A DNA stretch of 64,000 nucleotides from an uncultured Dehalococcoidia bacterium (GTDB lineage Bacteria > Chloroflexota > Dehalococcoidia > SM23-28-2), in the NCBI GenBank assembly GCA_964512285.1, contig CAZEJO010000002.1, positions 32,392-96,391 of the forward strand, in the 5' to 3' direction. Below, piece after piece: positions 19,745 to 49,234 of the stretch. Position 1 is the stretch's first letter. Each line of letters begins with the position of its first letter. The translations under genes and the position numbers were made by a program. Under the pieces are notes generated by a model. That model searched no databases and was not told where the DNA came from. It saw only the letters and a list, made by a program, of their open reading frames with translations.

Positions 19745-19818
19745 CGCCCCCGGCAGGACTCGAACCCACAACCGCCTGGTCCGAAGCCAGGCGCTCTATC
19801 CAATTGAGCTACGGGGGC
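19745..19818 (-). tRNA. tRNA-Arg (anticodon TCG).
   Basis: Minus-strand GCCCCCG-TA-GCTC-AATTGGATA-GAGC-G-CCTGG-CTTCGGA-CCAGG-CGGTT-GTGGG-TTCGAGT-CCTGC-CGGGGGC-G. Cloverleaf folded by hand: 7-bp acceptor, U33, G37. CCA not encoded. Confidence 0.85.
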
Positions 19819-19980
19819 ACCTTCGACCCATTGACTGAGCCAACCCAAGCTACGGAGTGTTCAACAAGCCCTAGAAAGTTTATCATAGGCCTCGTACGGC
19901 CTCAACCGCGCTTATCTGTCGACAAGCACGCTAGCTCACAACCGCCTGAGGGAGCCAACGTGGAGCAAGACGCCGAGGTC

Positions 19981-21306
19981 ATGATCAAGACGGTAGAGGA
20001 TCTCCTACGGGGCGAGGCCCTGGAGGAGGCCGTCGACCTGGTATCCTCCATCCACCCAGCCGACCAGGCCGAGCTCTTCTGGCACCTGGAGCCGGAGCTA
20101 CGGGAGGCCTTTCTGGCCCTTCTCTCTGCGGAGGGCCTCGCTCACCTGCTGGAGTACCTGGACGACGACCAGCGCGCGATAGTGGTGGAGAAGATGCCAC
20201 GGGCGTCTCTCGCCCGCGTCCTGGACAGGATCGACAACGACGTCGCCGCCGACATTCTCCGTACGCTGCCCCCAGCGGAGGGCGCGCGGGTGCTCTCCAC
20301 CATGAGCACGGCCTCAGAGGTGGCTCCCCTCCTGGAGCATGCCGACGAGAGCGCCGGCGGCATCATGACCCGCGGCTTCGTGTCCCTCCACGGCGAGATG
20401 ACTACCCAGGACGCCATCAAGTACCTGCGCCTGCGTAAGCCCAACGTGGAGGAAGCTTACTACCTGTACGTCCTGGATGCCGCCAATCGCCTGGAGGGCG
20501 TGCTAAGCCTGCGCGAGCTGGTGGTGGCCCCCGCCGCAACCCTCATCCACAAAGTCATGAGCCGAGATGTGATCGCCGTCGGGCCGGAGACAGACCAAGA
20601 GGAGGTAGCTCGTGTGGTTCAGCGCTATCGTCTGCGCGCCCTACCGGTGGTAGACGAAGAGCGCCACCTGCTGGGCATCACCACCATGGACGACGCCCTG
20701 AACGTCGTCTCTGAAGAGGCCACCGAGGACATGTACAGCATTATCGGCCTGCCCGCCGAAGAGAGCGTTTACGACCCCGTCACCGTGTCGGCTCGCAGAC
20801 GCCTGCCCTGGTTGCTACTGAACCTTGTCCTCGCCTTCATAGCCGCTGGCGTCGTCAGTCGCTTTGTAGACACCATCGAAGAGATAGCGGCCCTGGCCGT
20901 GTTTATGCCCATCGTGGCTGGTCAGGGCGGCAATGCTGGTATTCAGACCATCACCCTGGTGGTACGAGAGATCGCCCTGGGAGAAGTAGAGCTCAAAGAT
21001 GCCAAGCGCGTCCTGATCAAAGAGGTGTCCGTGGGCGTGCTGAAAGGAATCGTCCTGGGGCTATTCGTTGGCCTGATAGCCTGGGCATGGTGGAGCAACG
21101 CCTGGCTGGGTCTGGTTGTCGGGCTGGCTATACTGCTGAACCTGATCGTGGCTGGCTTCTGGGGAGCGATAATACCGCTGGGCCTACGCTGGCTCCGCCT
21201 CGATCCCGCTGTCGCCTCGGGGGTCTTCCTGACCGGCTTCACCGACGTGCTGGGCTTCTTCTTCCTGCTGGGCCTGGCGACCCTTCTGCTCTCCCATCTC
21301 ACCTAG
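19981..21306 (+). CDS. mgtE: Magnesium transporter MgtE.
   Basis: MgtE N-domain, tandem CBS region, and TM domain with the PIVAGQGGNAG motif. Proposed start MIKTVEDLL at 19981. The track ORF 5' extension (from 19804) overlaps tRNA-Arg and is rejected. Confidence 0.85.
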   Translation: MIKTVEDLLRGEALEEAVDLVSSIHPADQAELFWHLEPELREAFLALLSAEGLAHLLEYLDDDQRAIVVEKMPRASLARVLDRIDNDVAADILRTLPPAEGARVLSTMSTASEVAPLLEHADESAGGIMTRGFVSLHGEMTTQDAIKYLRLRKPNVEEAYYLYVLDAANRLEGVLSLRELVVAPAATLIHKVMSRDVIAVGPETDQEEVARVVQRYRLRALPVVDEERHLLGITTMDDALNVVSEEATEDMYSIIGLPAEESVYDPVTVSARRRLPWLLLNLVLAFIAAGVVSRFVDTIEEIAALAVFMPIVAGQGGNAGIQTITLVVREIALGEVELKDAKRVLIKEVSVGVLKGIVLGLFVGLIAWAWWSNAWLGLVVGLAILLNLIVAGFWGAIIPLGLRWLRLDPAVASGVFLTGFTDVLGFFFLLGLATLLLSHLT

Positions 21307-21945: not shown

Positions 21946-22013
21946 GCACATGGAGTGTATCACGTTTGCCCAGATACGGTCAAGAATAGCGTAGGCTGGT
22001 TCCTCTTCCCCGT

Positions 22014-22042
22014 ATCGACAAGCTAGGGAACAGCTTGTAGAA
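22014..22042 (+). promoter_or_regulatory. Sigma70-like promoter candidate for the hyp operon (TCGACA-N17-TAGAAT).
   Basis: Hexamers and spacing read from the sequence, ~65 bp upstream of the hypA-like start; RBS GAGGAGG at -9. Confidence 0.35.
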
Positions 22043-22107
22043 TCGGAGGGCCAACGTTTGCGGTAAAAGATTACGCCATAGTAAAATTAACTAGCGAGGA
22101 GGCCTTC

Positions 22108-22347
22108 ATGCACGAGCTAGCGGCAGCCCAGGATGTCGTCAAGACTGCCCTGGCGACAGCCGAAGCGGAGGGCGCCAAGAGAATAGTAGCCATTGTCCTC
22201 GAGATTGGTGACCTTTACGGGGTTGACCAGATGCGAGAACTCATCGCGATGGAGGCGAAGGGGACAATAGCCGAGGGGGCCCGCTTGGACATCGAATCCG
22301 TGGCTGGTCCTAACATCCGGGTTGAGAGCATAGAGGTAGAACAGTAG
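22108..22347 (+). CDS. hypA: HypA-like [NiFe]-hydrogenase nickel chaperone lacking the zinc-finger module (79 aa, no cysteines).
   Basis: N-terminal MHE Ni-binding motif (MHELAAAQ...KRIVAIVLEIGDLYGV) and C-terminal strand IRVESIEVEQ match HypA. The ~35-aa CxxC...CxxC insert is absent. First gene of the hypFCDE cluster. Confidence 0.6.
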   Translation: MHELAAAQDVVKTALATAEAEGAKRIVAIVLEIGDLYGVDQMRELIAMEAKGTIAEGARLDIESVAGPNIRVESIEVEQ

Positions 22348-22353: not shown

Positions 22354-24663
22354 GTGGCTATCAGGGCGCAGGTGGTGGTGCGAGGGATCGTTCAGGGGGT
22401 TGGCTTCCGTCCCTTCGTCTATCGCCTCGCCCAAGAGCACCAGCTTAGCGGCTGGGTCCTCAACTCCACTCAGGGCGTGGTCATCGAGGTGGAGGGGCCG
22501 CAGCAACGAATAGCTGGCTTTATCGCCGGGCTCAAGGCCGATCCCCCTCCCCAGGCCGTCATCGAAAGAGTAGAGACCAACCTCCTTCCGCCTGTTGGCT
22601 ACTCGTCCTTCATCGTCGAGGCCAGCCGCGAGGGCGATGAGTTCGTCCTGATCTCCCCCGACATTTGCATCTGCGCCGACTGCCTCAATGAGCTCCGGAA
22701 CTCCCACGACCGCCGTTGGGCCTATCCCTTCATAAACTGCACCAACTGCGGCCCCCGCTTCACCATCATCAGCGACATCCCCTACGACCGACCCAAGACG
22801 ACAATGAGCGCCTTCACCATGTGTCCTCGCTGCGATGAGGAGTACCACAACCCCGCTGACAGGCGCTTCCACGCTCAGCCCAACGCCTGCGCCCTGTGCG
22901 GCCCCCGGCTGGAGCTGGCGACGAATGGCACTCGCCCCGCTGAAGCGCCGCCGCGAGAAGAGCCCATCGAGAGCGTCCGTCGCCTGCTGACGGAGGGGGC
23001 GATTGTGGCGGCGAAAGGGCTGGGGGGCTTCCACCTGGCCTGCGATGCCACGAATGCGGGCGCGGTGGCAACCCTGCGCGAGCGCAAGCAGCGCGTGGAC
23101 AAGCCCTTCGCCGTCATGTCCCTGGACGTGGACACCGTCCGCCGCTACTGCGAGGTCAGTGAAGGCGAGGCTCAGCTCCTCGAGTCGCCGGCGCGGCCCA
23201 TCGTGCTCCTGCGACGCAAGCCGGGCTCGCCCATCGCCGCTGAGGCAGCCCCCGCCAACAATAACCTGGGGGTCATGCTGCCCTACACGCCCCTGCACTA
23301 CCTCCTGCTGAGCGATGGCGCGACACCCGCGCCTCTGGCCCTGGTGATGACCAGCGGCAACATGAGCGAGGAGCCTATCGCCATTGGCAACCAGGAGGCG
23401 CTGGAGCGCCTGAGCCCCCTGGCCGACTACTTCCTTCTCCACGACCGCGATATCTACGTCCGCTGCGACGACTCAGTCACCCGCCTCTTTCGAGGCAGAG
23501 AGGCGATGCTCCGCCGCTCCCGCGGCTACGCGCCCTTCCCCGTCCGCCTGAACCTGGAGCTGAAGGAGATCCTGGCCTGCGGAGCTGATCTCAAGAACAC
23601 CTTCTGCCTCACCAAGGGCACCTATGCCTTCCTCAGCCAGCACATCGGCGACATGGAGAACTACGAGACCTTCGCCGGCTATCAAGCGGCCATCGAGCAC
23701 TTCCAGCGGCTCTTTCGGGTGAACCCGCGGGCGGTGGCCTATGACCTTCACCCCGATTATCTGGCCACCCGCTACGCCCTGGAGCTCGCGGAGACCCAGG
23801 GCTTACGGCTGGTGCCCGTGCAGCACCACCACGCCCACGTTGTGAGCTGCATGGCCGAGAACGGCGTGGACGGAGAGGTCATCGGCGTGGCCCTCGACGG
23901 CACCGGCTACGGCACGGACGGCCACATCTGGGGCGGCGAGTTCCTCCTGGCCGACTGCCGCCGCTTTCGCCGCCTAGGTCACCTCAAGTATGTGCCCCTG
24001 CCCGGCGGCGATGCAGCCACCAAACGGCCCTACCGTATGGCAGTAAGCCATCTTCTGAGCGCCTTCGGTGAGGAGGCCCTGGACCTGCCGCTGGAGCTGT
24101 GGAAGCAAATCGAACCGCCGGAGCTGGCCCTGATACGCCGCATGATGGCGGCGAAAGTGAACTGCCCTCTCACCTCTAGCTGCGGCCGCCTGTTCGACGC
24201 CGTATCGGCCCTGCTGGGCGTGCGCGGCGTGGTCAACTACGAAGGGCAGGCGGCCATCGAGCTGGAGATGCTGACCGCCGAAGGCGTGGATGAAGTCTAC
24301 GACTGGAGCCCACCTTCAAGCTATCCTATAATTATTGATCCGGCGCCTGTGCTGCAGGGAGTGGTTTCGGACCTGAGGCGAGGGGTGGATCGAGCTGTGA
24401 TCTCGGCCAAGTTCCACAACACCATCGCCGACGTCATTGTCGGCGTGAGCCGGGTTGCCAGAGAAAGGACGGGCATCAACCGAGTGGCCCTTAGCGGCGG
24501 CGTATTCCAGAATATGTACCTTCTTGGCCGCACCCTGGACGGACTGGAGAGCCGGGGCTTCGAGGCCCTCATCCACCACCAGGTGCCCACCAACGACGGC
24601 GGCATCGCCCTCGGCCAGGCGGTGATCGCCAACGCCCGTCTGTCACGGAGGAAGAAGCGCTAG
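22354..24663 (+). CDS. hypF: Carbamoyltransferase HypF ([NiFe] hydrogenase maturation).
   Basis: Acylphosphatase domain (VRGIVQGVGFRPFVYRLA), two CxxC-X18-CxxC zinc fingers, YrdC and Kae1-like domains; 769 aa. Confidence 0.9.
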   Translation: MAIRAQVVVRGIVQGVGFRPFVYRLAQEHQLSGWVLNSTQGVVIEVEGPQQRIAGFIAGLKADPPPQAVIERVETNLLPPVGYSSFIVEASREGDEFVLISPDICICADCLNELRNSHDRRWAYPFINCTNCGPRFTIISDIPYDRPKTTMSAFTMCPRCDEEYHNPADRRFHAQPNACALCGPRLELATNGTRPAEAPPREEPIESVRRLLTEGAIVAAKGLGGFHLACDATNAGAVATLRERKQRVDKPFAVMSLDVDTVRRYCEVSEGEAQLLESPARPIVLLRRKPGSPIAAEAAPANNNLGVMLPYTPLHYLLLSDGATPAPLALVMTSGNMSEEPIAIGNQEALERLSPLADYFLLHDRDIYVRCDDSVTRLFRGREAMLRRSRGYAPFPVRLNLELKEILACGADLKNTFCLTKGTYAFLSQHIGDMENYETFAGYQAAIEHFQRLFRVNPRAVAYDLHPDYLATRYALELAETQGLRLVPVQHHHAHVVSCMAENGVDGEVIGVALDGTGYGTDGHIWGGEFLLADCRRFRRLGHLKYVPLPGGDAATKRPYRMAVSHLLSAFGEEALDLPLELWKQIEPPELALIRRMMAAKVNCPLTSSCGRLFDAVSALLGVRGVVNYEGQAAIELEMLTAEGVDEVYDWSPPSSYPIIIDPAPVLQGVVSDLRRGVDRAVISAKFHNTIADVIVGVSRVARERTGINRVALSGGVFQNMYLLGRTLDGLESRGFEALIHHQVPTNDGGIALGQAVIANARLSRRKKR

Positions 24664-24665: not shown

Positions 24666-24896
24666 ATGTGCCTGGCCATACCGGCGCGGGTTGTCCAGAT
24701 CGACGAAGGTCTAGGCCTGGTGGAGCTAGGGGGAGTCGTGCGTGAAGCGAGCTTCATGCTCCTGCCCGATGCCCAGGTGGGCGACTACGTTCTCCTCCAC
24801 GCTGGCTACGCCCTCCAGAAAGTGGACGAGGCGGAGGCCGAGGAGACCATCCGTCTGTTGACCGAGCTGGCCGAGGACGGGAGGGCAGAAGCATAG
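24666..24896 (+). CDS. hypC: Hydrogenase maturation factor HypC.
   Basis: N-terminal MCLAIP motif; 76 aa. Confidence 0.85.
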   Translation: MCLAIPARVVQIDEGLGLVELGGVVREASFMLLPDAQVGDYVLLHAGYALQKVDEAEAEETIRLLTELAEDGRAEA

Positions 24897-25984
24897 TGGT
24901 GCGCTACGTGCGCGAGTTCCACGATCCTGCCGCCGCCCGCGGGCTGGCGGCGACGATCGAGCGCATAACCAACCGCTCGGTGAACCTGATGGAGGTATGT
25001 GGCACTCATACCGTGACCATCTTCCGCCACGGCATTCGCCAGCTCCTGCCGCCGCCGCTGAGCATGCTCTCGGGGCCCGGCTGCCCAGTCTGCGTCACCA
25101 CCAACGCCGATATCGACAAGGCCATCGCCCTGGCCGAGCAGTCGAAGGTAACCCTGGCCACCTTCGGCGACATGATGAAGGTGCCGGGGAGCTACCAGAG
25201 CCTCCAGCAGGTCAAGGCCGATGGCAGCGACGTGCGGGTCGTCTATTCTCCTCGCGATGCCGTCTGCATGGCCCGCGACAACCCCCGCCAGCCCGTCATA
25301 TTCTTCGCCGTGGGGTTCGAGACCACCGTCCCCACCATCGCCGCCGCGCTCCTGGAGGCCGAAGCGCTGGGGCTCAAGAACTTCTACCTGATCTCCGTGC
25401 ACAAGCTCATCCCGCCCGCCATGCTCGCTCTACTGGAGGCGCGGGAGGTGCGCATCGACGGCTTCATCTGCCCCGGCCACGTGAGCGTGGTCATCGGCTC
25501 GCAGCCCTACGAGTTCATCCCCCAACAGTACGGCGTTCCCTGCGTGATCACCGGCTTCGAGCCGTTGGACGTCCTCCAGGGCATCGAGATGCTGCTGCGC
25601 CAGATCGCCGAGGGCAGAGCAGAGGTGGAGATCCAGTATCGCCGAGGGGTGCGGCCGGAGGGTAATCCCCTGGCGCGCGAGCTAGTATCGCGGGCGTTCG
25701 AGACCAGCGACGCCGACTGGCGCGGGCTGGGCTGCATCCCCAACAGCGGGCTGAAGCTGCGAGCGGAGTACAAGCGCTTCGACGCCGAGCAGGCCTTCGC
25801 CATCAACCCTCCGCCCACCAAGGAGCACAAGGGCTGCCTCTGCGGCGATATCCTGCGGGGAGTCAAGACGCCGCCGGAGTGCCCCCTGTTCGCCGAAACC
25901 TGCACCCCCGAGAGGCCGGTAGGCCCCTGCATGGTCTCCAGCGAGGGCACCTGCGCCGGCTGGTATCAATACGGGTCGCGCTAA
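24896..25984 (+). CDS. hypD: Hydrogenase maturation factor HypD.
   Basis: CGTH, GPGCPVC and FETT motifs; C-terminal CxxC cluster; 362 aa. Confidence 0.9.
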   Translation: MVRYVREFHDPAAARGLAATIERITNRSVNLMEVCGTHTVTIFRHGIRQLLPPPLSMLSGPGCPVCVTTNADIDKAIALAEQSKVTLATFGDMMKVPGSYQSLQQVKADGSDVRVVYSPRDAVCMARDNPRQPVIFFAVGFETTVPTIAAALLEAEALGLKNFYLISVHKLIPPAMLALLEAREVRIDGFICPGHVSVVIGSQPYEFIPQQYGVPCVITGFEPLDVLQGIEMLLRQIAEGRAEVEIQYRRGVRPEGNPLARELVSRAFETSDADWRGLGCIPNSGLKLRAEYKRFDAEQAFAINPPPTKEHKGCLCGDILRGVKTPPECPLFAETCTPERPVGPCMVSSEGTCAGWYQYGSR

Positions 25985-25992: not shown

Positions 25993-27033
25993 ATGGCAAA
26001 GAGAAACGTGGCAGGAACCAGCAAGATCCTCCTGGCTCATGGCAGCGGCGGCCGCCTCAGCCACGAGCTGGTGGCCAAGGAGTTCGTTCCGCCCTGGGCC
26101 AACCCCATCCTCGACCAGCTCAACGACTCGGCCGTGTTCGCCTTGAGCCCGGATGGCACCGGCCCCCGCCTAGCTTTCACCACCGACTCCTACGTGGTGA
26201 AGCCCCTCTTCTTCAAAGGGGGCGACATCGGCCGCCTGGCGGTCTGCGGCACAGTCAACGACCTGGCCATGGTGGGAGCGAAGCCCCTGTACCTTTCGGC
26301 CAGCTTCGTCATCGAGGAGGGGCTGTCCCTGGCCAACATGAGAGCAGTGGTGAAGTCGATGCGCCAGGCGGCGGCTGAGGCGGGCGTGCAGATCGTGACC
26401 GGCGATACGAAGGTGGTGGAGGGAGGCGCCGCCGACGGCCTCTTCGTCAACACCGCCGGCCTGGGCCTGGTGCCGCCTGGGGTAGAGATCGGCGGCAGCA
26501 GGGCCCGCGTGGGCGACGCGATCATCCTCTCGGGCAGTATCGGCGACCACGGCATCGCCGTGATCTCTCAGCGGGAGGGACTGGAGTTCGAGGCGCCGGT
26601 GGACAGCGACGTCGCCCCCCTGAACGGTCTGGTGGCAGCCATGCTGGCGGTCAGCACCAACGTCCGCGTTCTGCGCGACCCCACTCGTGGCGGCCTGGCA
26701 ACCTCCCTCAACGAGATAGCCCAGCAGTCCGGGGTTGGCATCCAGATCGATGAACCAACGATCCCAGTCAAGGATGGCGTATGGGGTGCCTGCGAGATGC
26801 TGGGCTTCGACCCCCTGTACGTGGCCAACGAAGGCAAGCTGGTCACTATCGTCGAGCCTAAAGACGCTGAAAGAATCCTGAGCGTTATGCGAAAGACAAA
26901 GTATGGTGAAGAGGCAGCGATCATCGGGGAGGTAGTCGCCGAGCCGCAGGGCAAGGTTCTGATGAAGACAACTATCGGCGGCACGCGCATCGTCCACATG
27001 CTGGTGGGCGAGATGCTGCCGCGTATCTGTTGA
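25993..27033 (+). CDS. hypE: Hydrogenase maturation factor HypE (carbamoyl dehydratase).
   Basis: PurM-like fold; MAKRNVAGTSKILLAHGSGG start (RBS AAGGAAGG). The track ORF N-extension overlaps hypD. C-terminal ...PRIC. Confidence 0.9.
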   Translation: MAKRNVAGTSKILLAHGSGGRLSHELVAKEFVPPWANPILDQLNDSAVFALSPDGTGPRLAFTTDSYVVKPLFFKGGDIGRLAVCGTVNDLAMVGAKPLYLSASFVIEEGLSLANMRAVVKSMRQAAAEAGVQIVTGDTKVVEGGAADGLFVNTAGLGLVPPGVEIGGSRARVGDAIILSGSIGDHGIAVISQREGLEFEAPVDSDVAPLNGLVAAMLAVSTNVRVLRDPTRGGLATSLNEIAQQSGVGIQIDEPTIPVKDGVWGACEMLGFDPLYVANEGKLVTIVEPKDAERILSVMRKTKYGEEAAIIGEVVAEPQGKVLMKTTIGGTRIVHMLVGEMLPRIC

Positions 27034-27042: not shown

Positions 27043-28380
27043 ATGACAACGCGCGAGAGGGGGAACCGGGCCGATACGGCCAGGCAGGACACGGAAGAGC
27101 TAGCCGCCCTGCTGGACATGTCCATGGCCTTCGCCCAGGCTACCGACCTGGACAGGGTAATGGAGACCGTTCTTGCCCGCAGCACCGCTCTCTATGAGGC
27201 GGCCGATGCCGGCGCTCTCTTCCTCTACAACCCTGATGAGGACTGCCTGGTAGCCAGGGCCTCCATTGGCTACGAGACAGAGCCTCTCTCCCGAGTGCGA
27301 CTGAGGCCGGGAGAGGCCATCGTGGGCAAGGTCTTCAAGCACAGACGAAGCCTGCTGTGCGCCACTCCAGAGCAGATAGCGCTTAACATGGCCAACCTGC
27401 GCAAGGAGAACGAAGCTCACTTCGAAGGGGCCCGCTCCGGCATAAGCCAGCCCCGCAGCGCCATGTGCGCTCCCCTGATTGCTAAGGACTCTGTCCTGGG
27501 AGCCCTGATCCTAGTGAGCCTTCGCCGTCAGGAAGCCTCTTCTCGCCGCCAGAAAGCATTCTCTGCCACCGACCTTCACTTTCTCCAGGGAGTAGCCAAC
27601 CAGATCGCCATTGCTCTCGAGAACGCCCGTCTCTGGTCGGAGGTCTGCCGCGGTCAGGCCGTAACCGAAGCAAACCGCTTCAAAGATGAGTTTCTGGCCA
27701 GCATCTCCCACCAGCTTCTCACCCCCATCACCTCCATCAGAGCTGCCGCCGACCTGCTTAAGGCTTCGCCGACCAAGGAGAGCGAGGCAGCGGACAGCCT
27801 GATAAGCAGCATTGCCCGCAACACCCAGCGCCTTCAGGGTCTAGTGCAGGAACTGCTGGACCTAGCCCGTCTGCAAAGGGGCGAGGCCGTACTCTCACTC
27901 AAGCCCTGGGACCTGAAGACGATCGTAACGGAGAGCGCGGCAGCCATCGAACCCCTCGCCGGGGGGAAGGAACAGGCGCTGGAGGTGGAAATCCCCTCTT
28001 CTTCCTGCCCGGTGCTGGCCGACCGGGGGCGACTGGAGCAAGCGCTGATGAACCTGCTCTCCAACTCCAGCAAATTCACCCCTCGCCACGGTCACATCAG
28101 GACGACCCTCCAGGACAAGGACCGAGAGTATTTGGTGAGTGTCACCGACGATGGTCCCGGCATCCCCCAGGCTGAGCAGAATCAGATCTTCGAGCGCTTC
28201 TATTCGAACTCCCGCGCGCCAGGCGAAAAGACGGGCGCTGGCTTGGGCTTAGCCATCGCCAAGACAGTGGTGGAGCTACACGGAGGGAAAATCTGGGTGA
28301 AGAGCCAGGGCGGCCACGGCAGCACCTTCTTTTTCACCCTTCCCAAGGGGGACAGTCTTGCGGATTCTAGTCGTCGATGA
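27043..28380 (+). CDS. Cytoplasmic sensor histidine kinase with N-terminal GAF domain.
   Basis: GAF region, H-box ISHQLLTPITSIRAAADLL, HATPase_c (GAGLGLAI...GGHGSTFFFTLP). No TM segments. Confidence 0.8.
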   Translation: MTTRERGNRADTARQDTEELAALLDMSMAFAQATDLDRVMETVLARSTALYEAADAGALFLYNPDEDCLVARASIGYETEPLSRVRLRPGEAIVGKVFKHRRSLLCATPEQIALNMANLRKENEAHFEGARSGISQPRSAMCAPLIAKDSVLGALILVSLRRQEASSRRQKAFSATDLHFLQGVANQIAIALENARLWSEVCRGQAVTEANRFKDEFLASISHQLLTPITSIRAAADLLKASPTKESEAADSLISSIARNTQRLQGLVQELLDLARLQRGEAVLSLKPWDLKTIVTESAAAIEPLAGGKEQALEVEIPSSSCPVLADRGRLEQALMNLLSNSSKFTPRHGHIRTTLQDKDREYLVSVTDDGPGIPQAEQNQIFERFYSNSRAPGEKTGAGLGLAIAKTVVELHGGKIWVKSQGGHGSTFFFTLPKGDSLADSSRR

Positions 28381-29080
28381 CGAGCCCGATGTGGTAGAGG
28401 TCATCGAGCTTACCTTCAGGCTTCAGTGGCCGGGGAGCGAGGTGATAGCGGCCGCCGATGGCGAGTCGGCTCTGAAGGTCTTTCAAACAGGACAGCCGGA
28501 CGTGGTTGTCTTGGACGTAGGCCTCCCAGGGATGAGCGGCTTCGAGATCTGCCGCCGCCTGCGGGCGATCTCCGACGTGCCTATCCTCATGCTCACCGTC
28601 AGGGGCGAGGAACTGGATCGCCTCAAGGGCCTCGATCTGGGGGCCGACGATTACATCGTCAAGCCCTTCAGCCCACTGGAACTGGTGGCACGCACCCGAG
28701 CCGTGCTGCGCCGCTCCCAGATAGCGCCCATGCTAACCACCTCCCGCATCATCGTCGATGAGGAGCTTACCCTGGACTTGGACAACCGCGAGGTTATCCT
28801 CCGTGGCCAGCCAGTGAAGCTGACACCCACCGAGAGCCGCATTCTCTCTCAGCTTGTAGCCAACGCCGGCCACGTCGTCACTCAGAAGATGCTCCTAGCC
28901 AAGGTGTGGGGATGGGAAAGCGAGGATGATATGCTCATGCTCAAGGTGCATATCGCTCGCTTGCGCGAAAAATTGGACGACGATGCCTACAACCCCCGCT
29001 ACATCTTCACCGAACGAGGCCTAGGCTACCGTTTCGTCAGACCAGCCACGGTTCCCTTCCCTCCTCCTTCCTCCCCATGA
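28358..29080 (+). CDS. OmpR/PhoB-family response regulator (receiver + winged helix).
   Basis: MRILVVDDEPDV...DVGLPGMSGFEI receiver domain; C-terminal ...HIARLREKLDD...GYRF winged helix. Confidence 0.85.
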   Translation: MRILVVDDEPDVVEVIELTFRLQWPGSEVIAAADGESALKVFQTGQPDVVVLDVGLPGMSGFEICRRLRAISDVPILMLTVRGEELDRLKGLDLGADDYIVKPFSPLELVARTRAVLRRSQIAPMLTTSRIIVDEELTLDLDNREVILRGQPVKLTPTESRILSQLVANAGHVVTQKMLLAKVWGWESEDDMLMLKVHIARLREKLDDDAYNPRYIFTERGLGYRFVRPATVPFPPPSSP

Positions 29081-29228: not shown

Positions 29229-30380
29229 ATGGTAAGACAAATTGCTAACCCCTACAAAGAGGCGGTGGACATCGTCAAGGAGATGGGGGGTGAGGCACTC
29301 AGGCTGTGCTATCAGTGCGGCCTGTGTACCGGTGCCTGCCCCTGGAATGCCTTGAAGAGCTTCCCAGTCCGCAAGCTAATCCACGAGGTGCAACTGGGGC
29401 TTGTCGACTTCGAGAGCGAGGACATGTGGACGTGCGTCACCTGTGGCAACTGCGTCCAGCAATGCCCCCGCGGCGTCGAGATCATCGACGTGATGAGGGC
29501 CATGCGCCGCACCATCGTTGGCATGGGCGTCGGGCCGGTTCCCGACTCCTTACGCGTCACCATGAAGAACCTCGCTGGCACCGGCAATCCCTGGGGTGAA
29601 CCCCCGGAGAAGCGAGCTGACTGGGCTCAAGCCCTGAATGTCAAGCCGTTCAGCAACGGCACTCAGCTTCTGTACTTCCCCTGCTGTACCACCGCCTATG
29701 ACTCGAGCGTCAGTCGCATAGGCAAGGCTACGGCGACCATTCTTCAGAAGGCAGGGATAGATTTCGGTATCCTGGGCTCCAAGGAGACCTGCTGCGGCGA
29801 GAGCGCGCGCAAGGCGGGCGACGAGGAGCTGTTCCAACGGCTGGTCCAAGAGAACACGGCCGCCTTCGCCGAAAACGGCGTCAAGAACATAGTCGTTTCC
29901 TCGCCCCACTGCTACTACACCTTCAAGAACGAATACCCCATGGCGCAGAACGGCGTCCAGGTCATGCATTCCACCCAGTTCCTGGCCGGACTCATCCGAG
30001 AGGGCAAGATAAAATTCAGCAAAGAGATAAAGAAGAAGGTCGCCTATCACGACCCCTGCTACCTGGGACGCCACAGCGGCGTCTTTGACGAGCCACGCGA
30101 GATCCTGAGCAGCATTCCCGGCCTGGAGCTGGTGGAGATGGCCAATCATCACGAGAATAGCATCTGCTGCGGTGGTGGCGGCGGCCAGGTATGGATGGAG
30201 ACCAAGCCGGGCGAGAGGCTGGCCGAGGTGCGCGCGGAGCAGGCTCTGGACGTGGGTGCTGAGGTGCTGGCTCTGGCCTGCCCCTACTGCATGCTTATGT
30301 TTGAAGGCTGCCTGACGCAGGACGTGCTGGATCGGCTGGAGTTAAGGGATATCACCGAGTTGGTTGCGGAGGCTATGTAG
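29229..30380 (+). CDS. HdrD-like iron-sulfur protein (HdrC-HdrB fusion: 2x[4Fe-4S] ferredoxin motifs + two CCG domains), soluble.
   Basis: CYQCGLCTGACP and CVTCGNCVQQCP motifs. CCG domains CCTTAYD...CCGESARK and DPCYLGRH...CCGGGGG...CPYCMLMFEGC. Confidence 0.75.
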   Translation: MVRQIANPYKEAVDIVKEMGGEALRLCYQCGLCTGACPWNALKSFPVRKLIHEVQLGLVDFESEDMWTCVTCGNCVQQCPRGVEIIDVMRAMRRTIVGMGVGPVPDSLRVTMKNLAGTGNPWGEPPEKRADWAQALNVKPFSNGTQLLYFPCCTTAYDSSVSRIGKATATILQKAGIDFGILGSKETCCGESARKAGDEELFQRLVQENTAAFAENGVKNIVVSSPHCYYTFKNEYPMAQNGVQVMHSTQFLAGLIREGKIKFSKEIKKKVAYHDPCYLGRHSGVFDEPREILSSIPGLELVEMANHHENSICCGGGGGQVWMETKPGERLAEVRAEQALDVGAEVLALACPYCMLMFEGCLTQDVLDRLELRDITELVAEAM

Positions 30381-30382
30381 CC

Positions 30383-32365
30383 ATGGAAGAACCAAGGATC
30401 GGCGTATTTGTCTGCCACTGCGGGAGCAACATTGCGGACACCGTAGATGTTGACGAGGTGAGGGAGTTCGCCAGCGGCCTGCCCGGGGTTGCGTCAGCCC
30501 TGGACTATAAGTTCATGTGCTCCGAGCCCGGACAGCTCCTAATCAAGGAGAACATAGAGAAGCTGCATCTCAATCGGGTGGTGGTGGCTTCCTGTTCCCC
30601 CCGCATGCACGAGATTACCTTTCGCAAGGCCGTGGCTGAGGCGGGGATGAACCCCTACCTCTTTCAGATGGCCAACATCCGCGAGCATGATTCCTGGGTC
30701 CACAAGGACGGCGCCACTGAGAAGGCCAAAGCCCTGATCCACGCCGCCGTCGAGAGGGCTAGCGTGCTGGAGCCTCTGGAGAGAAAGGAAGTGCCGGTAA
30801 CTCCCACTGTGTTGATAGTGGGTGCCGGCATTGCCGGCATCCAGGCGGCCCTGAACATCGCTGAATCCGATCACAAAGTCTACCTGGTGGAGCGAGAGCC
30901 CTCCGTCGGCGGCCGCATGATCCAGCTAGACAAGACCTTCCCCACTCTGGACTGCTCATCCTGCATTCTCACGCCCAAGATGGCTTCCGTCGGATCCCAT
31001 CCCAACATCGAGCTTATGACCTACAGCGAGGTGGAGGAGGTCTCCGGTTACATCGGCAACTTCAAGGTCAAGGTCAGGAAGAAGCCTCGCTACGTGGACT
31101 CAGAGCTCTGCAACGGCTGCGGCCTTTGTATGGAGAAGTGCCCCTGGAAGACGGACAGCGAGTTCGATATGGGGCTGGGCAAGCGCAAGGCGATCTACAC
31201 ACCCTTCCCCCAGGCGGTACCCAACGTGCCGGTCATCGACACGGAGACCTGCGTCTACTTCAAGAAGGGGACCTGTAGGGCCTGCGAGAAGCTCTGTCCC
31301 ACGGGAGCCATCGCCTTCGATCAGAAGGAGGAGATCGTCGAGCTAGAGGTGGGGGCGATAATCGTGGCCACCGGCTACGACCTTTTCGACCCCTCTCCTA
31401 TAACTCAATACGGCTACAAGCGCCTGGACAACGTTATCACTAGCCTGGAGTTCGAGAGGATGTGCAGCGCCACCGGCCCTACCGGCGGTGAGCTGGTGCT
31501 GAAGGATGGCAGCACTCCCCAGAGCGTGGCCATCATCCACTGCGTGGGCAGCCGCGACAAGAACTACTATGAGTACTGCTCGCGCGTCTGCTGCATGTAT
31601 GCCCTCAAATACTCCCACCTGATAAAGGAGAAGACCGAGGCAGACGTATATCAGCTCTACATCGATATGCGCTGCTACGGAAAGGGCTTCGAGGAGTTCT
31701 ATCAGCGCCTGTCCGACGAGGGCGTCAACTTCGTGCGGGGCAAGGTTGCCCAGGTCACCGACCAGGCGATAAACGATGAAGAGAAGGGCAAGCTGGTGCT
31801 GGTCAGTGAGGACACCCTCCTGGGCAGGATGGTGCGCATCCCGGTGGACATGGTCATTCTCTGTCCGGCCATGGTGCCGCGGGCCGATGTCGAGGAAGTG
31901 GCCAGGCGTTTCCTCATCAGCCGAGGCGCCGATGGGTTCTTCTTGGAGAAGCACCCCAAACTGGAGCCGGTGGCCACCGCCAGTGCTGGTGTGTTCGTGG
32001 TCGGCTGTGCCCAGGGGCCCAAGGACATCCCGGACACCGTGGCTCAGGCCTCGGCGGGGGCAGCAGAGGCCCTGTCACTAATCGACAGAGGAACAGTGGA
32101 GGTCGAGGCCGCCACTGCCGTAGTGAATGAGGAGATCTGCTCTGGCTGCAAGATCTGTCTGAACCTCTGCCCCTACAATGCCATCGCCTTCGATGAGGAG
32201 AAGAAGGTGGCCGAGATCAACGACATTCTCTGCAAGGGGTGCGGCGTTTGCGTTGCCGCCTGTCCTTCCGCCGCCATTACCGGCCGCCACTTCACCGACA
32301 AGCAGATCTTCGCCGAGATCGAGGGTCTGCTAGCGGACATCAAGCTACCCTTGGTGGCAGTTTAA
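30383..32365 (+). CDS. hdrA: Heterodisulfide reductase subunit A-like flavoprotein (HdrA).
   Basis: N-terminal VCHCGSNI motif, FAD-binding GAGIAGIQAAL, inserted and C-terminal 2x[4Fe-4S] ferredoxin motifs (CSGCKICLNLCP...CKGCGVCVAACP); 660 aa. Confidence 0.85.
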   Translation: MEEPRIGVFVCHCGSNIADTVDVDEVREFASGLPGVASALDYKFMCSEPGQLLIKENIEKLHLNRVVVASCSPRMHEITFRKAVAEAGMNPYLFQMANIREHDSWVHKDGATEKAKALIHAAVERASVLEPLERKEVPVTPTVLIVGAGIAGIQAALNIAESDHKVYLVEREPSVGGRMIQLDKTFPTLDCSSCILTPKMASVGSHPNIELMTYSEVEEVSGYIGNFKVKVRKKPRYVDSELCNGCGLCMEKCPWKTDSEFDMGLGKRKAIYTPFPQAVPNVPVIDTETCVYFKKGTCRACEKLCPTGAIAFDQKEEIVELEVGAIIVATGYDLFDPSPITQYGYKRLDNVITSLEFERMCSATGPTGGELVLKDGSTPQSVAIIHCVGSRDKNYYEYCSRVCCMYALKYSHLIKEKTEADVYQLYIDMRCYGKGFEEFYQRLSDEGVNFVRGKVAQVTDQAINDEEKGKLVLVSEDTLLGRMVRIPVDMVILCPAMVPRADVEEVARRFLISRGADGFFLEKHPKLEPVATASAGVFVVGCAQGPKDIPDTVAQASAGAAEALSLIDRGTVEVEAATAVVNEEICSGCKICLNLCPYNAIAFDEEKKVAEINDILCKGCGVCVAACPSAAITGRHFTDKQIFAEIEGLLADIKLPLVAV

Positions 32366-32381
32366 GGAGGCGCAGTTAGCC

Positions 32382-32858
32382 ATGGTATCGGGCAACTACG
32401 AGCCGACGATCGTAGGGTTCCTGTGTAACTGGTGCGCCTACCAAGGAGCGGACCTAGCCGGCACGGCGCGCATGGAGTACCCCCCTAACGTGCGCCCGGT
32501 GCGGGTGATGTGCACCGGCCGTATTGACCCTACCTTTATCCTGAAGGCCTTCGCCGAAGGAGCCGACGGCGTGCTGGTTGGTGGCTGCCACCCGGGCGAC
32601 TGCCACTATCTGGAGGGCAACTACAAGGCCATCCGCCGCATCACTATGGTGCGCAGGATGCTGGAACAGTTCGGAATCGAGCCCGAGCGCTTCCGCCTGG
32701 AGTGGGTCTCCGCCAGTGAAGGAGCCAAGTGGGCCAAGGTAGTGAAGGAGATGACCGAGCAGGTGAGAGCCTTGGGCCCACTCCAGTGGTGGGAGAACGT
32801 TAGGGAGGCCCAAGATGCTGAGTCTGTGGCCTTGGGCTCGGCGGAAGGCCGACGATAA
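32382..32858 (+). CDS. mvhD: MvhD (methyl-viologen-reducing hydrogenase delta subunit, [2Fe-2S]).
   Basis: GFLCNWCAYQGADLAG...VMCTGRIDP...GGCHPGDCHY signature. Confidence 0.85.
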   Translation: MVSGNYEPTIVGFLCNWCAYQGADLAGTARMEYPPNVRPVRVMCTGRIDPTFILKAFAEGADGVLVGGCHPGDCHYLEGNYKAIRRITMVRRMLEQFGIEPERFRLEWVSASEGAKWAKVVKEMTEQVRALGPLQWWENVREAQDAESVALGSAEGRR

Positions 32859-32904
32859 GGCTGAGACGAAGGCCGAGAGCTCGAGGGCATCAGGGAGGCC
32901 TAGC

Positions 32905-33909
32905 ATGGCAAAACCTAAGATGGCTCTGTATTGGGCAGCTAGCTGTGGTGGCTGTGAGATAGCTGTGGTGCGGCTGTACGAGAAGATTCTAGACGTGGCC
33001 AACACCTTCGAGATCGTTCTCTGGCCGTGCATTATGGACTTCAAGTACAAGGACGTAGAGGCGCTGCCGGAGAAGAGCATTCTGATAACTCTCTTCAATG
33101 GCGCCATCAGGAACTCCGAGCAGGAGCACATGGCCCACATGCTACGGGAGAAGTCCCAGATTCTGGTCGCCTACGGGGCCTGCTCCCACCTGGGCGGCAT
33201 CCCCGGCCTGGGCAACGTCACCAACCGCCAGGGGGTTTTCGAGAGCAGCTACCGCGAGACGCCCTCTACCGTTAACGAGGAAGGCACCTATCCTCAGCTA
33301 AGCTTCCAGGTGCCCGAGGGAGAGCTTACACTGCCCGAGTTCTACGACACTGTCCGCGCCCTCAACCAGGTAGTGCCGGTCGATTACTACATCCCCGGCT
33401 GCCCACCAACGAAGGAGCAGACGGAAGCAGTGATCCAACTGCTGGTACAGGTGGTGACAGAGGGGGCGGAACTGCCTCCAGCCGGCTCGGTGATCGGGGC
33501 ATCAGGCAAGACGGTGTGCGCTGACTGCCCTCGCACCAGGGAGGAAAAGTCGATCAAAGCCATACACCGCACCTACCAGATCATCCCCGACCCCGAGAAG
33601 TGCCTTCTGGACCAGGGCATCCTCTGTGCCGGGCCCGCCACCCGTGGCGGCTGTAGCGCGCCCTGTCCCCAGGTGAACATGCCCTGCATCGGCTGCTACG
33701 GGCCAGCGCCGGGAGCGGTGGATCAGGGAGCCAAGCTTCTGAGCGCAGTGACATCTAATATCGATTCCAAGGATCCGGAAGAGATCGAACGAATACTGGA
33801 CGGCATTCCCGACTCCATCGCCGCCTTCTACATGTTCGGCTTGCCCTCATCGCTTCTGCGCCGCCGGAAGCTGGAGCGCGAGGCAGCGACGGCCGAGGCC
33901 TCGCGGTAG
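32905..33909 (+). CDS. [NiFe]-hydrogenase small subunit, group 3 (MvhG-like).
   Basis: MAKPKMALYWAASCGGCEIAVV... (NuoB/20-kDa-like proximal cluster motif), CxxC distal cluster motifs. Proposed start at 32905 with RBS GGGAGG; the track ORF starts at 32815. Confidence 0.8.
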   Translation: MAKPKMALYWAASCGGCEIAVVRLYEKILDVANTFEIVLWPCIMDFKYKDVEALPEKSILITLFNGAIRNSEQEHMAHMLREKSQILVAYGACSHLGGIPGLGNVTNRQGVFESSYRETPSTVNEEGTYPQLSFQVPEGELTLPEFYDTVRALNQVVPVDYYIPGCPPTKEQTEAVIQLLVQVVTEGAELPPAGSVIGASGKTVCADCPRTREEKSIKAIHRTYQIIPDPEKCLLDQGILCAGPATRGGCSAPCPQVNMPCIGCYGPAPGAVDQGAKLLSAVTSNIDSKDPEEIERILDGIPDSIAAFYMFGLPSSLLRRRKLEREAATAEASR

Positions 33910-33968
33910 CGTCCAGGGCTTTCTGAGGCCGTAACGTGGAGTGACAGGGAGCGAGGAGCAAAGAAGAG

Positions 33969-35453
33969 ATGACAGAGGCTAAGGTGGAGACGCGGCGAAT
34001 AAGCATTGACCCCATCACCCGGCTGGAGGGGCACGGCCGCATCGAGATCTTCCTCAACGATGAGGGGGACGTGCAAAACGCCTACTTCCAGGTGCCGGAG
34101 CTGCGGGGATTCGAGAAGTTCTGCGAGGGGCGGCCGGTGGAAACCCTCCCCGTCATTACCGCCCGCATCTGCGGAGTGTGCCCCGAGGCCCACCACATGT
34201 GCTCCACCAAGGCCCTCGATGCAGTCTTCAAGGTGGATCCCCCCTCTGCGGCCAAGAAGCTGCGAGAGCTTCTGTATAGCGCCTTCTACGTGGCCGACCA
34301 CGCCACCCATTTCTACGCCTTAGGCGGCCCCGACTTTGTGGTGGGGCCGGACGCCCCCGCCGCCGAACGCAACATCGTCGGCGTCATCGGCAAGGTGGGC
34401 ATGGAGATCGGCGGCCAGGTGCTGAAGGCTCTGGCTGCTACCCACGAAGTGGTGGCCATGCTCGGCGGCAAGTACATCCACCCTACCTGCGGCGTGCCCG
34501 GCGGCATAAGCAAGGGCCTCACCGAAGAAGAGCGGGCCAAGGTCGAGGAGATCGCCAAGGCTGCGATAGAGTTCGGCAAGCTGACCATCAAGATCGTGGA
34601 CGACGTAGTGCTGGCCAACAAGGCCTACGTGGACATGATTCTGAGTGACACCTTCGCCCATCAGACCTACTACATGGGCCTGGTGGACGAAAACAACCAC
34701 GTGAACTTCTACGACGGCCATCTGCGGGTGGTCAACCAGCAGGGCAAGGAAGTGGCCAAGTTCCACCCGTCTCAGTACCTGGACTACATTGGCGAGCACG
34801 TGGAGCCGTGGTCGTATCTCAAGTTCCCCTTCCTCAAGAAGGTCGGCTGGAACGGCCTGACGGACGGGCCGAATAGCGGCATCTACCGGGTGGCTCCCCT
34901 GGCCCGCCTCAACGCCGCCGACGGTATGGCTACTCCCCTCGCTCAAGCGGAGTACGAGCGGTTCTACTCCACCCTGGGCGGCAAGCCCGTTCACGCTACG
35001 CTGGCCACCCACTGGGCGCGCGTTATCGAGCTGGTGTACGCCGCCGAGCGCCTGATGGAGCTGGCCACTGATCCGGAGATAACCAGCACCGACATCCGCA
35101 CCATTCCCACGGAGACTCCAGGCGAAGGCGTGGGAGTGGTGGAGGCACCGCGGGGAGTCCTCATTCACCACTACTGGGCAGACGAGAATGCCTTGGCGAA
35201 GAAGGTCAACCTGATCGTAGGAACGGGTCACAACAACGGTGCCATCGCTATGTCCATCAACAAGGCGGCTAAGGGCCTGATCAAAAAGGGCACAGTGGTC
35301 ACCGATGGTCTCCTCAACACCATCGAGATGGCATTCCGGGCCTACGACCCCTGCTTGGCCTGCGCCACCCACTCCTTGCCCGGCCAGATGCCCCTAGTCG
35401 TCAGCATCTACGACAGCCAAGGGAACCTCGTCCAGCGCCTCAGAAGGGACTAG
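33969..35453 (+). CDS. [NiFe]-hydrogenase large subunit, group 3 (MvhA-like).
   Basis: N-terminal RICGVC and C-terminal DPCLACATH Ni-Fe ligand motifs, with a 26-aa C-terminal extension for protease processing. Confidence 0.9.
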   Translation: MTEAKVETRRISIDPITRLEGHGRIEIFLNDEGDVQNAYFQVPELRGFEKFCEGRPVETLPVITARICGVCPEAHHMCSTKALDAVFKVDPPSAAKKLRELLYSAFYVADHATHFYALGGPDFVVGPDAPAAERNIVGVIGKVGMEIGGQVLKALAATHEVVAMLGGKYIHPTCGVPGGISKGLTEEERAKVEEIAKAAIEFGKLTIKIVDDVVLANKAYVDMILSDTFAHQTYYMGLVDENNHVNFYDGHLRVVNQQGKEVAKFHPSQYLDYIGEHVEPWSYLKFPFLKKVGWNGLTDGPNSGIYRVAPLARLNAADGMATPLAQAEYERFYSTLGGKPVHATLATHWARVIELVYAAERLMELATDPEITSTDIRTIPTETPGEGVGVVEAPRGVLIHHYWADENALAKKVNLIVGTGHNNGAIAMSINKAAKGLIKKGTVVTDGLLNTIEMAFRAYDPCLACATHSLPGQMPLVVSIYDSQGNLVQRLRRD

Positions 35454-35456
35454 TGA

Positions 35457-35921
35457 TTGCGGACCCTCATCCTGGGTCTTGGCAATCCTATTCTCTGCGA
35501 CGACGCCGTCGGCCTTCAGGCTGCCCGCCAGCTATATGAACTGATAGGTGAAGAGGATGTCGATCTGGTGGAGGCGGCGGTAGCGGGAATGCAGACCGTT
35601 CAGCTTCTCTCTGGCTACGACCGGGCGGTGGTCATCGATGTGGTGCCAGACGAGACGAGAGTGGGCGAGGTCTGGCGCCTCGACACCGACGAGCTGGAAG
35701 ACGTCTCCTCAACATCCAGTCATGGCATCGGCCTGGGGCAGGCCCTGCGCCTGGCCCGGCTGATGGGCCTGCCCGTCCCTGAGCAGATCCTCATCTATGC
35801 TATCGCTGCTGCCGATACCCAGACCTTCGGCGAGACCCTGACGCCTAAGCTCGCGAAAGCCCTCCCCACCATCGTCCGCAGGATCGCCGCCGACCTGGAC
35901 CGCCCCCCGGACCAGGGCTAA
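35457..35921 (+). CDS. Hydrogenase maturation endopeptidase (HycI/FrhD family).
   Basis: MRTLILGLGNPILCDDAVG motif; 154 aa; directly follows the large subunit. Confidence 0.8.
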   Translation: MRTLILGLGNPILCDDAVGLQAARQLYELIGEEDVDLVEAAVAGMQTVQLLSGYDRAVVIDVVPDETRVGEVWRLDTDELEDVSSTSSHGIGLGQALRLARLMGLPVPEQILIYAIAAADTQTFGETLTPKLAKALPTIVRRIAADLDRPPDQG

Positions 35922-36981: not shown

Positions 36982-37353
36982 ATGTCCCAGGCTAGAACCT
37001 CGTCTGATGCCTCAGGAGCCGGCTATCTGGATGCTAAGGCTGCCGCCCGGGTCAAAGCAGCCCTGATCGACCCGGCCATCGCTTCCCGCCTGGCCGAGAC
37101 CTTCAAGGTCCTGGGCGACCCCAGCAGGGTCAGGATCGTCCACGCTCTCTCGCTCGAAGAGCTGTGCACCCACGATCTGGCCTCGGTTCTGGGCATGAGC
37201 GAGTCGGCCGTTTCCCATCAACTGGGCCTGCTGCGCCTGCTGAGGCTGGTGAGGTTTCGCAGAGAGGGTCGCATCGTCTACTACTCTCTGGATGACGAAC
37301 ACATCCGTCAGCTATTCGAGGACTCTCTCAGACACGTCAAGGAACAACGATGA
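36982..37353 (+). CDS. ArsR/SmtB-family metalloregulator.
   Basis: HTH ...LGDPSRVRIVHALSLEELCTHDLASVLGMSESAVSHQL. Translationally coupled to the CDF transporter (ATGA overlap). Confidence 0.75.
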   Translation: MSQARTSSDASGAGYLDAKAAARVKAALIDPAIASRLAETFKVLGDPSRVRIVHALSLEELCTHDLASVLGMSESAVSHQLGLLRLLRLVRFRREGRIVYYSLDDEHIRQLFEDSLRHVKEQR

Positions 37354-46583: not shown

Positions 46584-46585
46584 TG

Positions 46586-47906: not shown

Positions 47907-47925
47907 CGGTCCTTCCCCTTTTTTG

Positions 47926-49065: not shown

Positions 49066-49234
49066 ACTGACGCACCTCTTATCCTGAAGATGAGGCCTGC
49101 ACCTGTGGCAGAGAGCAAGAGCATGGCCCGCAAAAGCCAAGAATGTAGACTACGGACAATTCCTAGCGCCGGTCCCAATAGCTGCATAGCCATCTACAAC
49201 CCTCGCACACCCAGAGGAGAAAAGCGAGGATTCA

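Follow-up and report, generated by a model that had tools for sequence, protein, structure and literature searches.

Can a HypA protein that has lost its zinc-binding domain still act as a nickel chaperone, and can it do so without its partner HypB? The question is raised by a 64,000-nucleotide stretch of DNA from an uncultured Dehalococcoidia bacterium (GTDB lineage Bacteria; Chloroflexota; Dehalococcoidia; SM23-28-2; assembly GCA_964512285.1, contig CAZEJO010000002.1, positions 32,392 to 96,391), hereafter the window, in which the first gene of a hydrogenase maturation (hyp) operon, at 22108-22347 (+), encodes a Cys-free HypA of 79 amino acids (aa) that consists of the nickel-binding domain only, with an N-terminal Met-His-Glu (MHE) and without the zinc module. 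Reviews of the family state that HypA always has two sites, one for Ni and one for Zn (PMC7055735; PMC12134894), and describe the HypA-HypB pair as 'conserved throughout evolution' (PMC12134894). We conclude, with a probability of roughly 0.7, that this protein, which we call mini-HypA, is a functional and selected single-domain HypA that takes part in nickel insertion without a dedicated HypB, and on our best reading it would be a stand-alone chaperone for two [NiFe] hydrogenases, of groups 3c and 3b, encoded in the same window.

The translation of the open reading frame (ORF) at 22108-22347 (MHELAAAQDVVKTALATAEAEGAKRIVAIVLEIGDLYGVDQMRELIAMEAKGTIAEGARLDIESVAGPNIRVESIEVEQ; MHELAAAQ...VESIEVEQ) contains no Cys and a single His, H2. 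A Shine-Dalgarno (SD) sequence, GAGGAGG (22096-22102, +), lies 5 nt before the ATG and is kept in relatives, an in-frame stop codon upstream of the ATG shows MHE to be the true N terminus, and 6 nt separate the stop codon of the gene from the GTG start of hypF. The Pfam HypA profile PF01155 recognizes the protein (E 3.6e-11; 43.5 bits, above the cut-off of 28.9) through residues 1-66, which correspond to profile positions 1-68 of 112 only, and the NCBIfam HypA equivalog TIGR00100 scores it at 43.2 bits, below the cut-off of 88.1. When mini-HypA is aligned with canonical HypAs of 113 aa, the N-terminal ~68 residues match, including MHE and the GTIAEGARL loop, as does the last strand, G-x-x-I-x-V-E-S-I-E-V-E, with a single clean gap of 33 columns falling exactly over the CxxC...CxxC block. 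By sequence and alignment alike the structural zinc site of two CxxC motifs is absent, and the strands that would flank it are joined in frame by a four-residue turn, A-G-P-N. Tblastn with nine canonical and short HypAs found no remnant of the Zn module in any frame of the window, the matches being restricted to 22108-22344. Judged from its sequence, mini-HypA is a homologue of the HypA nickel-binding domain alone and not of canonical two-domain HypA. An initial annotation of this DNA had described a 79-aa HypA that keeps MHE and the core strands and lacks the zinc site, which the translation and the 33-column gap bear out; it had also remarked that the Cys of the usual 'MHELSLC' is replaced, and here the lack of Cys is correct and the significance attached to it is not, because canonical relatives carry A, T or I at that position of the alignment and the Cys is an E. 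coli-type feature only.

The predicted structure gives the same picture. An AlphaFold2 model computed on the family alignment has a predicted local distance difference test score (pLDDT) of 94.5 and a predicted template-modelling score (pTM) of 0.83, with a helix at residues 2-20, a strand at 25-34, a second helix at 39-50 and a hairpin of strands at 59-65 and 70-78. The top 14 matches to this model in a Foldseek comparison with the PDB are all HypA structures; the best is 3a43_B, HypA of Thermococcus kodakarensis (TMq 0.91, root-mean-square deviation 1.8 Å), in which the Zn domain corresponds to a gap, and the others include the HypA-HypB complexes 5aun/5aup, the HypA-HyhL complexes 5yxy/5yy0 and the Helicobacter pylori structures 6g81/2kdx. 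T. kodakarensis HypA is also the sole sequence match of mini-HypA in the PDB, residues 1-62 aligning with 1-64 of 3A43 and residues 61-78 with 117-134. The mapping onto 3A43 and the modelling had both been proposed in the initial annotation, and they return a gap that is the Zn domain, a remainder that is the nickel-binding domain, and a confident single-domain fold. As modelled, mini-HypA is the HypA nickel-binding domain with the Zn domain replaced by the four-residue turn.

A search of 5.8 billion proteins with mini-HypA returned 113 matches, the first 92 of which are short HypAs. Nearly all of these are 78-81 aa long, the few longer ones being so only through an upstream start call; they are 96% to 53% identical to mini-HypA, and those that are named all come from Dehalococcoidia. 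Canonical HypAs of 109-129 aa enter the match list only from E ~1e-8 onward. The exact sequence of mini-HypA is recorded on a single 1.8-kb contig only. Without exception (21/21) the diverse members compared carry Met1, His2, Glu3 and, within the GTIAEGA loop, the T-x-AEGA core, Gly52 and Ile54 being nearly invariant. Set against seven genomic relatives, the window gene has pairwise ratios of nonsynonymous to synonymous substitution (dN/dS) of 0.02-0.5, at dS values of up to ~2. Relatives were examined as loci fetched from GTDB representative genomes (L001 onwards) and read within ±10 kb. In ten Dehalococcoidia loci (L005-L014), which include two complete chromosomes (CP070630.1, 2.18 Mb; OY969584.1, 2.66 Mb), mini-hypA heads a mini-hypA-hypF-hypC-hypD-hypE cluster wherever the contig reaches far enough. 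The ~100 nt upstream of the gene (22010-22107), with a conserved TAGTAAAATTAAC box, are nearly invariant in L005-L010, where synonymous sites of the gene itself differ by 15-37%.

Pfam matches in the window give the order mini-hypA (22108), hypF (22354), hypC (24666), hypD (24896) and hypE (25993), all on the plus strand, in agreement with the initial annotation, which had noted the absence of hypB from this cluster. No HypB-, CobW- or UreG-like ORF, no Mrp/MinD-like P-loop ORF and no second hypA was found in the 64-kb window, whose only ORFs with a Walker A motif encode one ABC ATPase and ClpX. The relatives were scanned within ±10 kb of hypA with a HypB hidden Markov model built from the fetched loci, and HypB was found in 0/20 loci with a short HypA versus 44/59 canonical loci (Fisher p = 1e-9), where its gene is almost always immediately downstream of hypA. 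Nor does another conserved P-loop nucleoside triphosphatase (NTPase) take its place beside the short hypA genes, where only sporadic ABC-type Walker A ORFs occur; an alternative NTPase next to short hypA is ruled out on that ground.

How such a protein might deliver nickel can be sketched from what is known of canonical HypA. HypA binds Ni(II) through its N-terminal amine and His2/Glu3, its Zn site has been described as structural or regulatory, and in T. kodakarensis ATP-bound HypB brings His98 to the MHE motif, which creates a nanomolar nickel site (PMC7055735, PMC12134894). The N-terminal tail of the group 3b large subunit HyhL contacts the HypA nickel site, placing two nickel sites close together, and for Escherichia coli HypA neither HypB nor SlyD is needed to bind the large subunit (PMC7055735); high nickel can bypass hypB defects (PMC7055735, PMC12134894). 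We propose that in mini-HypA Ni(II) would be held by the N-terminal amine and by the backbone and side chains of His2/Glu3, and that the loaded protein would dock on an immature 3b or 3c large subunit already carrying Fe(CN)2CO, the docking being modelled on T. kodakarensis HypA, which binds HyhL through its nickel-binding region. Nickel would then be passed to the active-site Cys residues, after which the C-terminal extension would be cut by each cluster's own protease. Acquisition and delivery would proceed without a dedicated nucleotide-gated HypB step, or with at most a generic unlinked partner. We infer HypB-free delivery because the Zn domain, including the position equivalent to His98, is gone and no hypB is linked, and mini-HypA probably works without a dedicated HypB. 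The gene is linked to hypFCDE, by co-transcription or translationally, and lies near two group 3 hydrogenases with proteases of their own. The nickel affinity is probably of the micromolar class, because mini-HypA has no His or Cys besides His2.

Several points weigh against this proposal. Nickel binding by mini-HypA and its role in maturation are predictions only, and a high-affinity site would call for a further His or Cys, which the protein lacks; its affinity may be no better than micromolar unless a partner adds ligands. Mutations of the Zn-site Cys residues lower hydrogenase activity in H. pylori (PMC7055735), and the Zn domain is thus not dispensable everywhere. The locus counts behind the HypB contrast are not phylogenetically independent; counted by lineage, with the P0100 lineage (another Zn-less type, described below) included, HypB is present in 1/5 short versus 44/59 canonical (p = 0.024). 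These counts cover ±10 kb of hypA in the relatives, and the 64-kb window in the source. In the P0100 lineage the Zn-less hypA directly precedes a HypB gene, which shows that loss of the Zn module alone does not amount to independence from HypB.

The P0100 arrangement also shows that the main rival explanation is possible, namely that mini-HypA is functional and remains nucleotide-gated, an unlinked HypB or other G3E protein (or UreG, CooC, a COG0523 protein or SlyD) loading it with nickel from elsewhere in the genome, so that only the linkage has been lost. In that lineage the partner of the 80-aa Zn-less HypA is a 255-aa member of the CobW/HypB family; HypB reaches HypA with a short peptide from the N-terminal end of its G domain, with no sign that the Zn domain is needed (PMC3287977), and other Dehalococcoidia, the Dehalococcoidales, do encode HypB. 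PMC7285500 supplies evidence on both sides. It describes genomes with hypAFCDE and a group 3b hydrogenase (Nitrosococcus oceani AFC132, Nitrospina, Marinobacter, Sorangium and others), most of which are entirely without hypB; the exception is Rhodothermus marinus, with a hypAFCDE/3b cluster and an unlinked hypB, and the same paper speculates that UreG (in Nitrosococcus) or an unknown substitute replaces HypB. The absence of HypB within ±10 kb of the ten Dehalococcoidia mini-HypA genes and in the window speaks against an unlinked partner, as does, weakly, the finding that among the best 120 of at least 8000 matches to the nearest Chloroflexota HypB none is placed on a contig as long as one known to carry mini-HypA (2,656,704; 2,175,161; 328,786 bp and others). 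On balance we consider an unlinked nucleotide-dependent partner unlikely.

A re-purposed mini-HypA is far less probable still. It could be a docking or proofreading factor, for example one that holds the large subunit open for spontaneous nickel entry, or a regulator of the hyp or hydrogenase genes, and such a change of role would suit a protein with one potential strong nickel ligand side chain, His2, as it would the scaffold role of E. coli HypA in HypB docking (PMC7055735) and the old COG label of HypA/HybF, 'possibly regulating hydrogenase expression'. Against this, Met1-His2-Glu3 is strictly invariant across all short-HypA lineages, which is best explained by N-terminal nickel coordination, and mini-HypA has no DNA-binding feature.

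That mini-hypA is a decaying pseudogene of a canonical hypA, or a frameshift or sequencing artefact hiding the Zn-finger part, is hardly credible in spite of its shortness, its 43 against 88 bits on the NCBIfam equivalog and its want of a domain that reviews call universal: the artefact is excluded because only 6 nt separate the gene from hypF and no frame of the window resembles the Zn module, and decay is rejected because its length and its junction are shared by ~90 sequence clusters of identities as low as 49-53%, with dN/dS well under 1, the C-terminal strand kept in frame, a confidently predicted single-domain fold, and a conserved operon and upstream region. The initial annotation had offered two alternatives, a minimal nickel-chaperone variant or a decayed gene; MHE, the fold, selection, synteny and the strong SD sequence favour the former, the latter falls, and the frameshift check that it had named turned up no Zn-finger frame.

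The initial annotation treated mini-HypA as a local oddity, and here a wider survey changes the picture, placing it as one lineage of a large class of Zn-less HypAs found in multiple phyla. Among 50%-identity clusters of a representative library that match the family profile, the best 150 were assessed, and 55 of these 150 representatives are no longer than 95 aa, lack the CxxC pair and nearly all start with MHE; they span 77-92 aa and include proteins of cultured Novosphingobium and Thioalkalivibrio. One library member, P0366 (110 aa), joins the N-terminal ~55 residues of a short HypA to the C terminus of a [NiFe] large subunit, and may be a chimeric assembly or a deletion that fused hypA to the large-subunit gene.

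Three further Zn-less types can be distinguished. The first measures 86-92 aa and has a ~10-residue acidic linker (DDPxDPNA) where the Zn module would be, as well as two further conserved His residues in helix 2, H43 and H47 ('HF.EH'; alignment including L036, L046, L063, L073 and L078), which are absent from the Dehalococcoidia type and may be extra nickel ligands. A profile of this type has 2468 matches at E <= 1e-5, of which the best 120 are nearly all 86-92 aa; members occur in Novosphingobium beihaiensis, N. malaysiense, N. indicum, Thioalkalivibrio sp. AKL19 and Phenylobacterium, where RefSeq names them plainly HypA. Its genes are ordered small subunit-large subunit-protease-hypA-hypF-hypC-hypD-(hypE) in Verrucomicrobiota, Nitrospirota, Ca. 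Manganitrophus and Novosphingobium. The 80-aa type of the P0100 lineage (P0100, P0107 and P0113; L002-L004) lies in hypC-SIS-hypD-hypE-hypA-hypB clusters (L002, 3248-4257), and here the Zn-less HypA clearly operates with HypB. An 81-aa type from Oscillospiraceae (L022, L034, L067 and L072) lies within operons for group 4 membrane hydrogenases of the Mbh/Mrp type; at L034 (8508-14776) its gene is found between the large subunit and MnhE/F/G/B-like antiporter subunits.

The number of origins was assessed with a neighbour-joining tree of HypD from 53 loci (200 bootstrap replicates). The Dehalococcoidia form a clade with 100% support, sister to the canonical-HypA locus L042 (60%), and the Oscillospiraceae loci with short HypA form another (100%), nested within Clostridia with canonical HypA (99.5%). 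Neither a monophyletic group of all short-HypA loci nor one of Dehalococcoidia plus the 86-92-aa type appears in any replicate (0/200 for each), and a single origin of all short HypAs is ruled out by this tree. For HypF, HypD and HypE, identity with the window is 56-70% in Chloroflexota/Anaerolineae loci with canonical HypA (L042, L024), but no more than 42-50% in loci of the 86-92-aa type. This low identity and the 0/200 bootstraps suggest that the 86-92-aa type lost the Zn module independently, and the Oscillospiraceae type is taken as a further such loss, because its HypD nests among canonical-HypA Clostridia. Provided that hypA and hypD have stayed together, these comparisons indicate three or more losses of the Zn module. 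Mini-HypA is no isolated case but belongs, probably as a lineage of independent origin, to an architectural variant that has been overlooked.

We put forward more tentatively, and at somewhat less than even odds, that loss of the Zn domain and loss of HypB are functionally coupled, the joint loss having taken place three or more times (Dehalococcoidia; Clostridia/Oscillospiraceae; a group of Proteobacteria, Nitrospirota and Verrucomicrobiota), with an MHE-only mini-HypA forming a minimal NTPase-independent nickel route. If this is true, the chief purpose of the Zn domain is to connect HypA with the affinity switch that nucleotides drive in HypB, and HypA'FCDE (HypA' being the Zn-less form) plus a protease, a five-gene kit, is all that cytosolic group 3 and group 4 [NiFe] hydrogenases need for maturation.

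We note several features of the canonical relatives. The closest, L042 (2075-7545; Chloroflexota), has the unusual order hypF-hypA-hypD-hypB-hypE, and in L024 (Anaerolineae) a canonical hypA is followed directly by hypF, whose product is 70% identical to window HypF, with no hypB between; arrangements of this kind may represent the ancestral state from which the mini-hypA operon arose. A canonical Anaerolineales hypA at L077 (7285-7656) has an in-frame TGA at the first Cys of its first CxxC (AELQ-TGA-MAC..CPNC), beyond which the frame continues. No hairpin resembling a selenocysteine insertion sequence (SECIS) was found there (z = +1.25), and the TGA is more likely a nonsense mutation or a sequencing error than a selenocysteine codon.

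The remaining genes of the operon are assigned by their Pfam matches. HypF (22354-24663, +) has acylphosphatase, two zf-HYPF, YrdC and Kae1-like domains; hypC (24666-24896, +) matches HupF_HypC (E 8.5e-28), hypD (24896-25984, +) matches HypD (E 3e-155), and hypE (25993-27033, +) matches AIRS/AIRS_C. The longest hypE ORF starts at 25879, inside hypD; from the sequence and the HypE of L001, the true start is likely the ATG at 25993, after the SD sequence AAGGAAGG. Upstream of mini-hypA a promoter-like site, TCGACA-N17-TAGAAT (22015-22043, +), was picked out by a consensus scan, its function being putative, and its spacer contains a 7-nt inverted repeat, ACAAGCT (22018-22024)/AGCTTGT (22032-22038). 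This palindrome, or the conserved upstream region around it, is a candidate operator, possibly one used by the signalling pair encoded after hypE and before the hydrogenase genes, a GAF histidine kinase (27043-28380, +) and an OmpR-type response regulator (28358-29080, +), both identified by Pfam. An Rfam scan for a riboswitch or known RNA upstream of mini-hypA returned only two tRNAs.

Next comes a group 3c Hdr/Mvh-type [NiFe] hydrogenase module (29229-35921, +; Pfam), comprising an HdrBC-like CCG protein (29229-30380), HdrA (30383-32365), MvhD (32382-32858), the small subunit (32815-33909), the large subunit (33969-35453), which ends in DPCLACATH plus 24 aa, and a maturation protease (35457-35921), all on the plus strand. 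The spacing of ~3.3 kb between hypE and hdrA is repeated in L005, L009, L010 and L014. The best PDB matches of this large subunit are 7t2r (E 4e-120) and MvhA, 5odc_F (E 5e-117). A group 3b (sulfhydrogenase/Hyh-type) [NiFe] hydrogenase cluster (44029-49140, -; Pfam) lies 22 kb from the hyp genes and encodes, all on the minus strand, HyhB-like (47926-49140) and HyhG-like (46586-47512) proteins, the small subunit (45804-46583), the large subunit (44525-45814), which ends in DPCISCSAH plus 9 aa, and a protease (44029-44538). Its large subunit is a full-length homologue of the Pyrococcus furiosus sulfhydrogenase I alpha subunit (E 6e-62) and of T. kodakarensis HyhL, 5yxy_A (E 1.4e-61), its best PDB matches. 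Both large subunits of the window thus finish in DPCxxCxxH and a cleavable extension, and the single hyp set appears to serve both cytosolic enzymes, the group 3b hydrogenase presumably as its second client. In L009 group 3b structural genes and a protease lie directly upstream of mini-hypA.

Other genes of the window with a possible relation to metals were examined as well. A small CxxC protein supplying the Zn module in trans was considered and rejected: the sole candidate in the window, a Zn_ribbon_8/FmdB-like ORF (55026-55223, +; 66 aa, CxxC...CxxC), is 33 kb away, comes from a widespread, unrelated family and lacks conserved synteny in relatives, and nothing links it to HypA. Opposite it, and covering it in full, is a 252-aa ORF (54613-55371, -) without a Pfam match; the genuine gene is probably the small zinc ribbon. 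Metal supply could involve either of two transport genes, one for a CDF-family cation efflux transporter (37350-38282, +), ~1.4 kb downstream of the protease gene of the group 3c module, and one for an MgtE-type divalent cation channel (19804-21306, +), which lies upstream of the hyp genes. The 64-kb window contains no nickel-specific importer or NikR that we could see, and no in-frame candidate for a His-rich nickel-storage protein.

Existence of a Zn-less HypA class contradicts the statement that HypA always has two sites, and probably also the statement that the HypA-HypB pair is conserved throughout evolution. A full-text literature search, with subscription literature outside its reach, found no earlier description of a Zn-less HypA, and the accessible portion of PMC7285500, from which hypB-less hypAFCDE clusters are already known, makes no mention of a missing Zn domain; the class is apparently undescribed. 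Sequences of this sort, labelled simply HypA, already number in the thousands in databases, and others are called 'Zn finger protein HypA/HybF', names that mislead for proteins of this kind. In annotation, a 'missing hypB' in a genome with a Zn-less HypA need not mean an incomplete pathway or an incomplete metagenome-assembled genome. Zn-less HypAs are natural domain-deletion experiments on the roles of the Zn domain and HypB in affinity, selectivity against Zn and regulation, and a smaller accessory set of mini-hypA, hypFCDE and a protease may suffice for heterologous production of cytosolic group 3 hydrogenases.

Comparison with known systems places mini-HypA as follows. It shares with canonical HypA/HybF (E. 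coli; H. pylori, 6G81/2KDX; T. kodakarensis, 3A43) the MHE motif, the nickel-binding fold, the GTIAEGA loop, the final ..VESIEVE strand, a place in a hyp operon and an association with [NiFe] hydrogenases; it differs in having neither the CxxC-Xn-CxxC Zn domain (33 residues in bacterial homologues, ~65-116 in 3A43) nor an equivalent of T. kodakarensis His98, no Cys at all, no adjacent hypB and a score below the TIGR00100 cut-off. The P0100 lineage is of the same length class, with MHE and an excised Zn module, but has scattered Cys residues and a His-rich HypB directly next to it. The Oscillospiraceae type, too, has a single domain, lacks the CxxC pair and has no hypB within 10 kb of its gene; it differs in that this gene directly follows the group 4 large subunit inside the structural operon. 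The 86-92-aa type resembles mini-HypA in organization, with a single-domain MHE HypA, the order hypA-F-C-D-E, a link to group 3b and no hypB nearby, yet it is only ~36% identical to mini-HypA, which has neither its acidic linker nor H43/H47. Finally, the window has the gene order, the 3b linkage (at 22 kb) and the lack of a linked hypB of the hypAFCDE module of the Nitrosococcus oceani AFC132 type, as described in PMC7285500, whereas its HypD, HypF and HypE show no specific relationship to their counterparts in the proteobacterial, Nitrospirota or Verrucomicrobiota hypAFCDE modules, and the likeness is probably one of organization, reached by convergence and not by shared descent.

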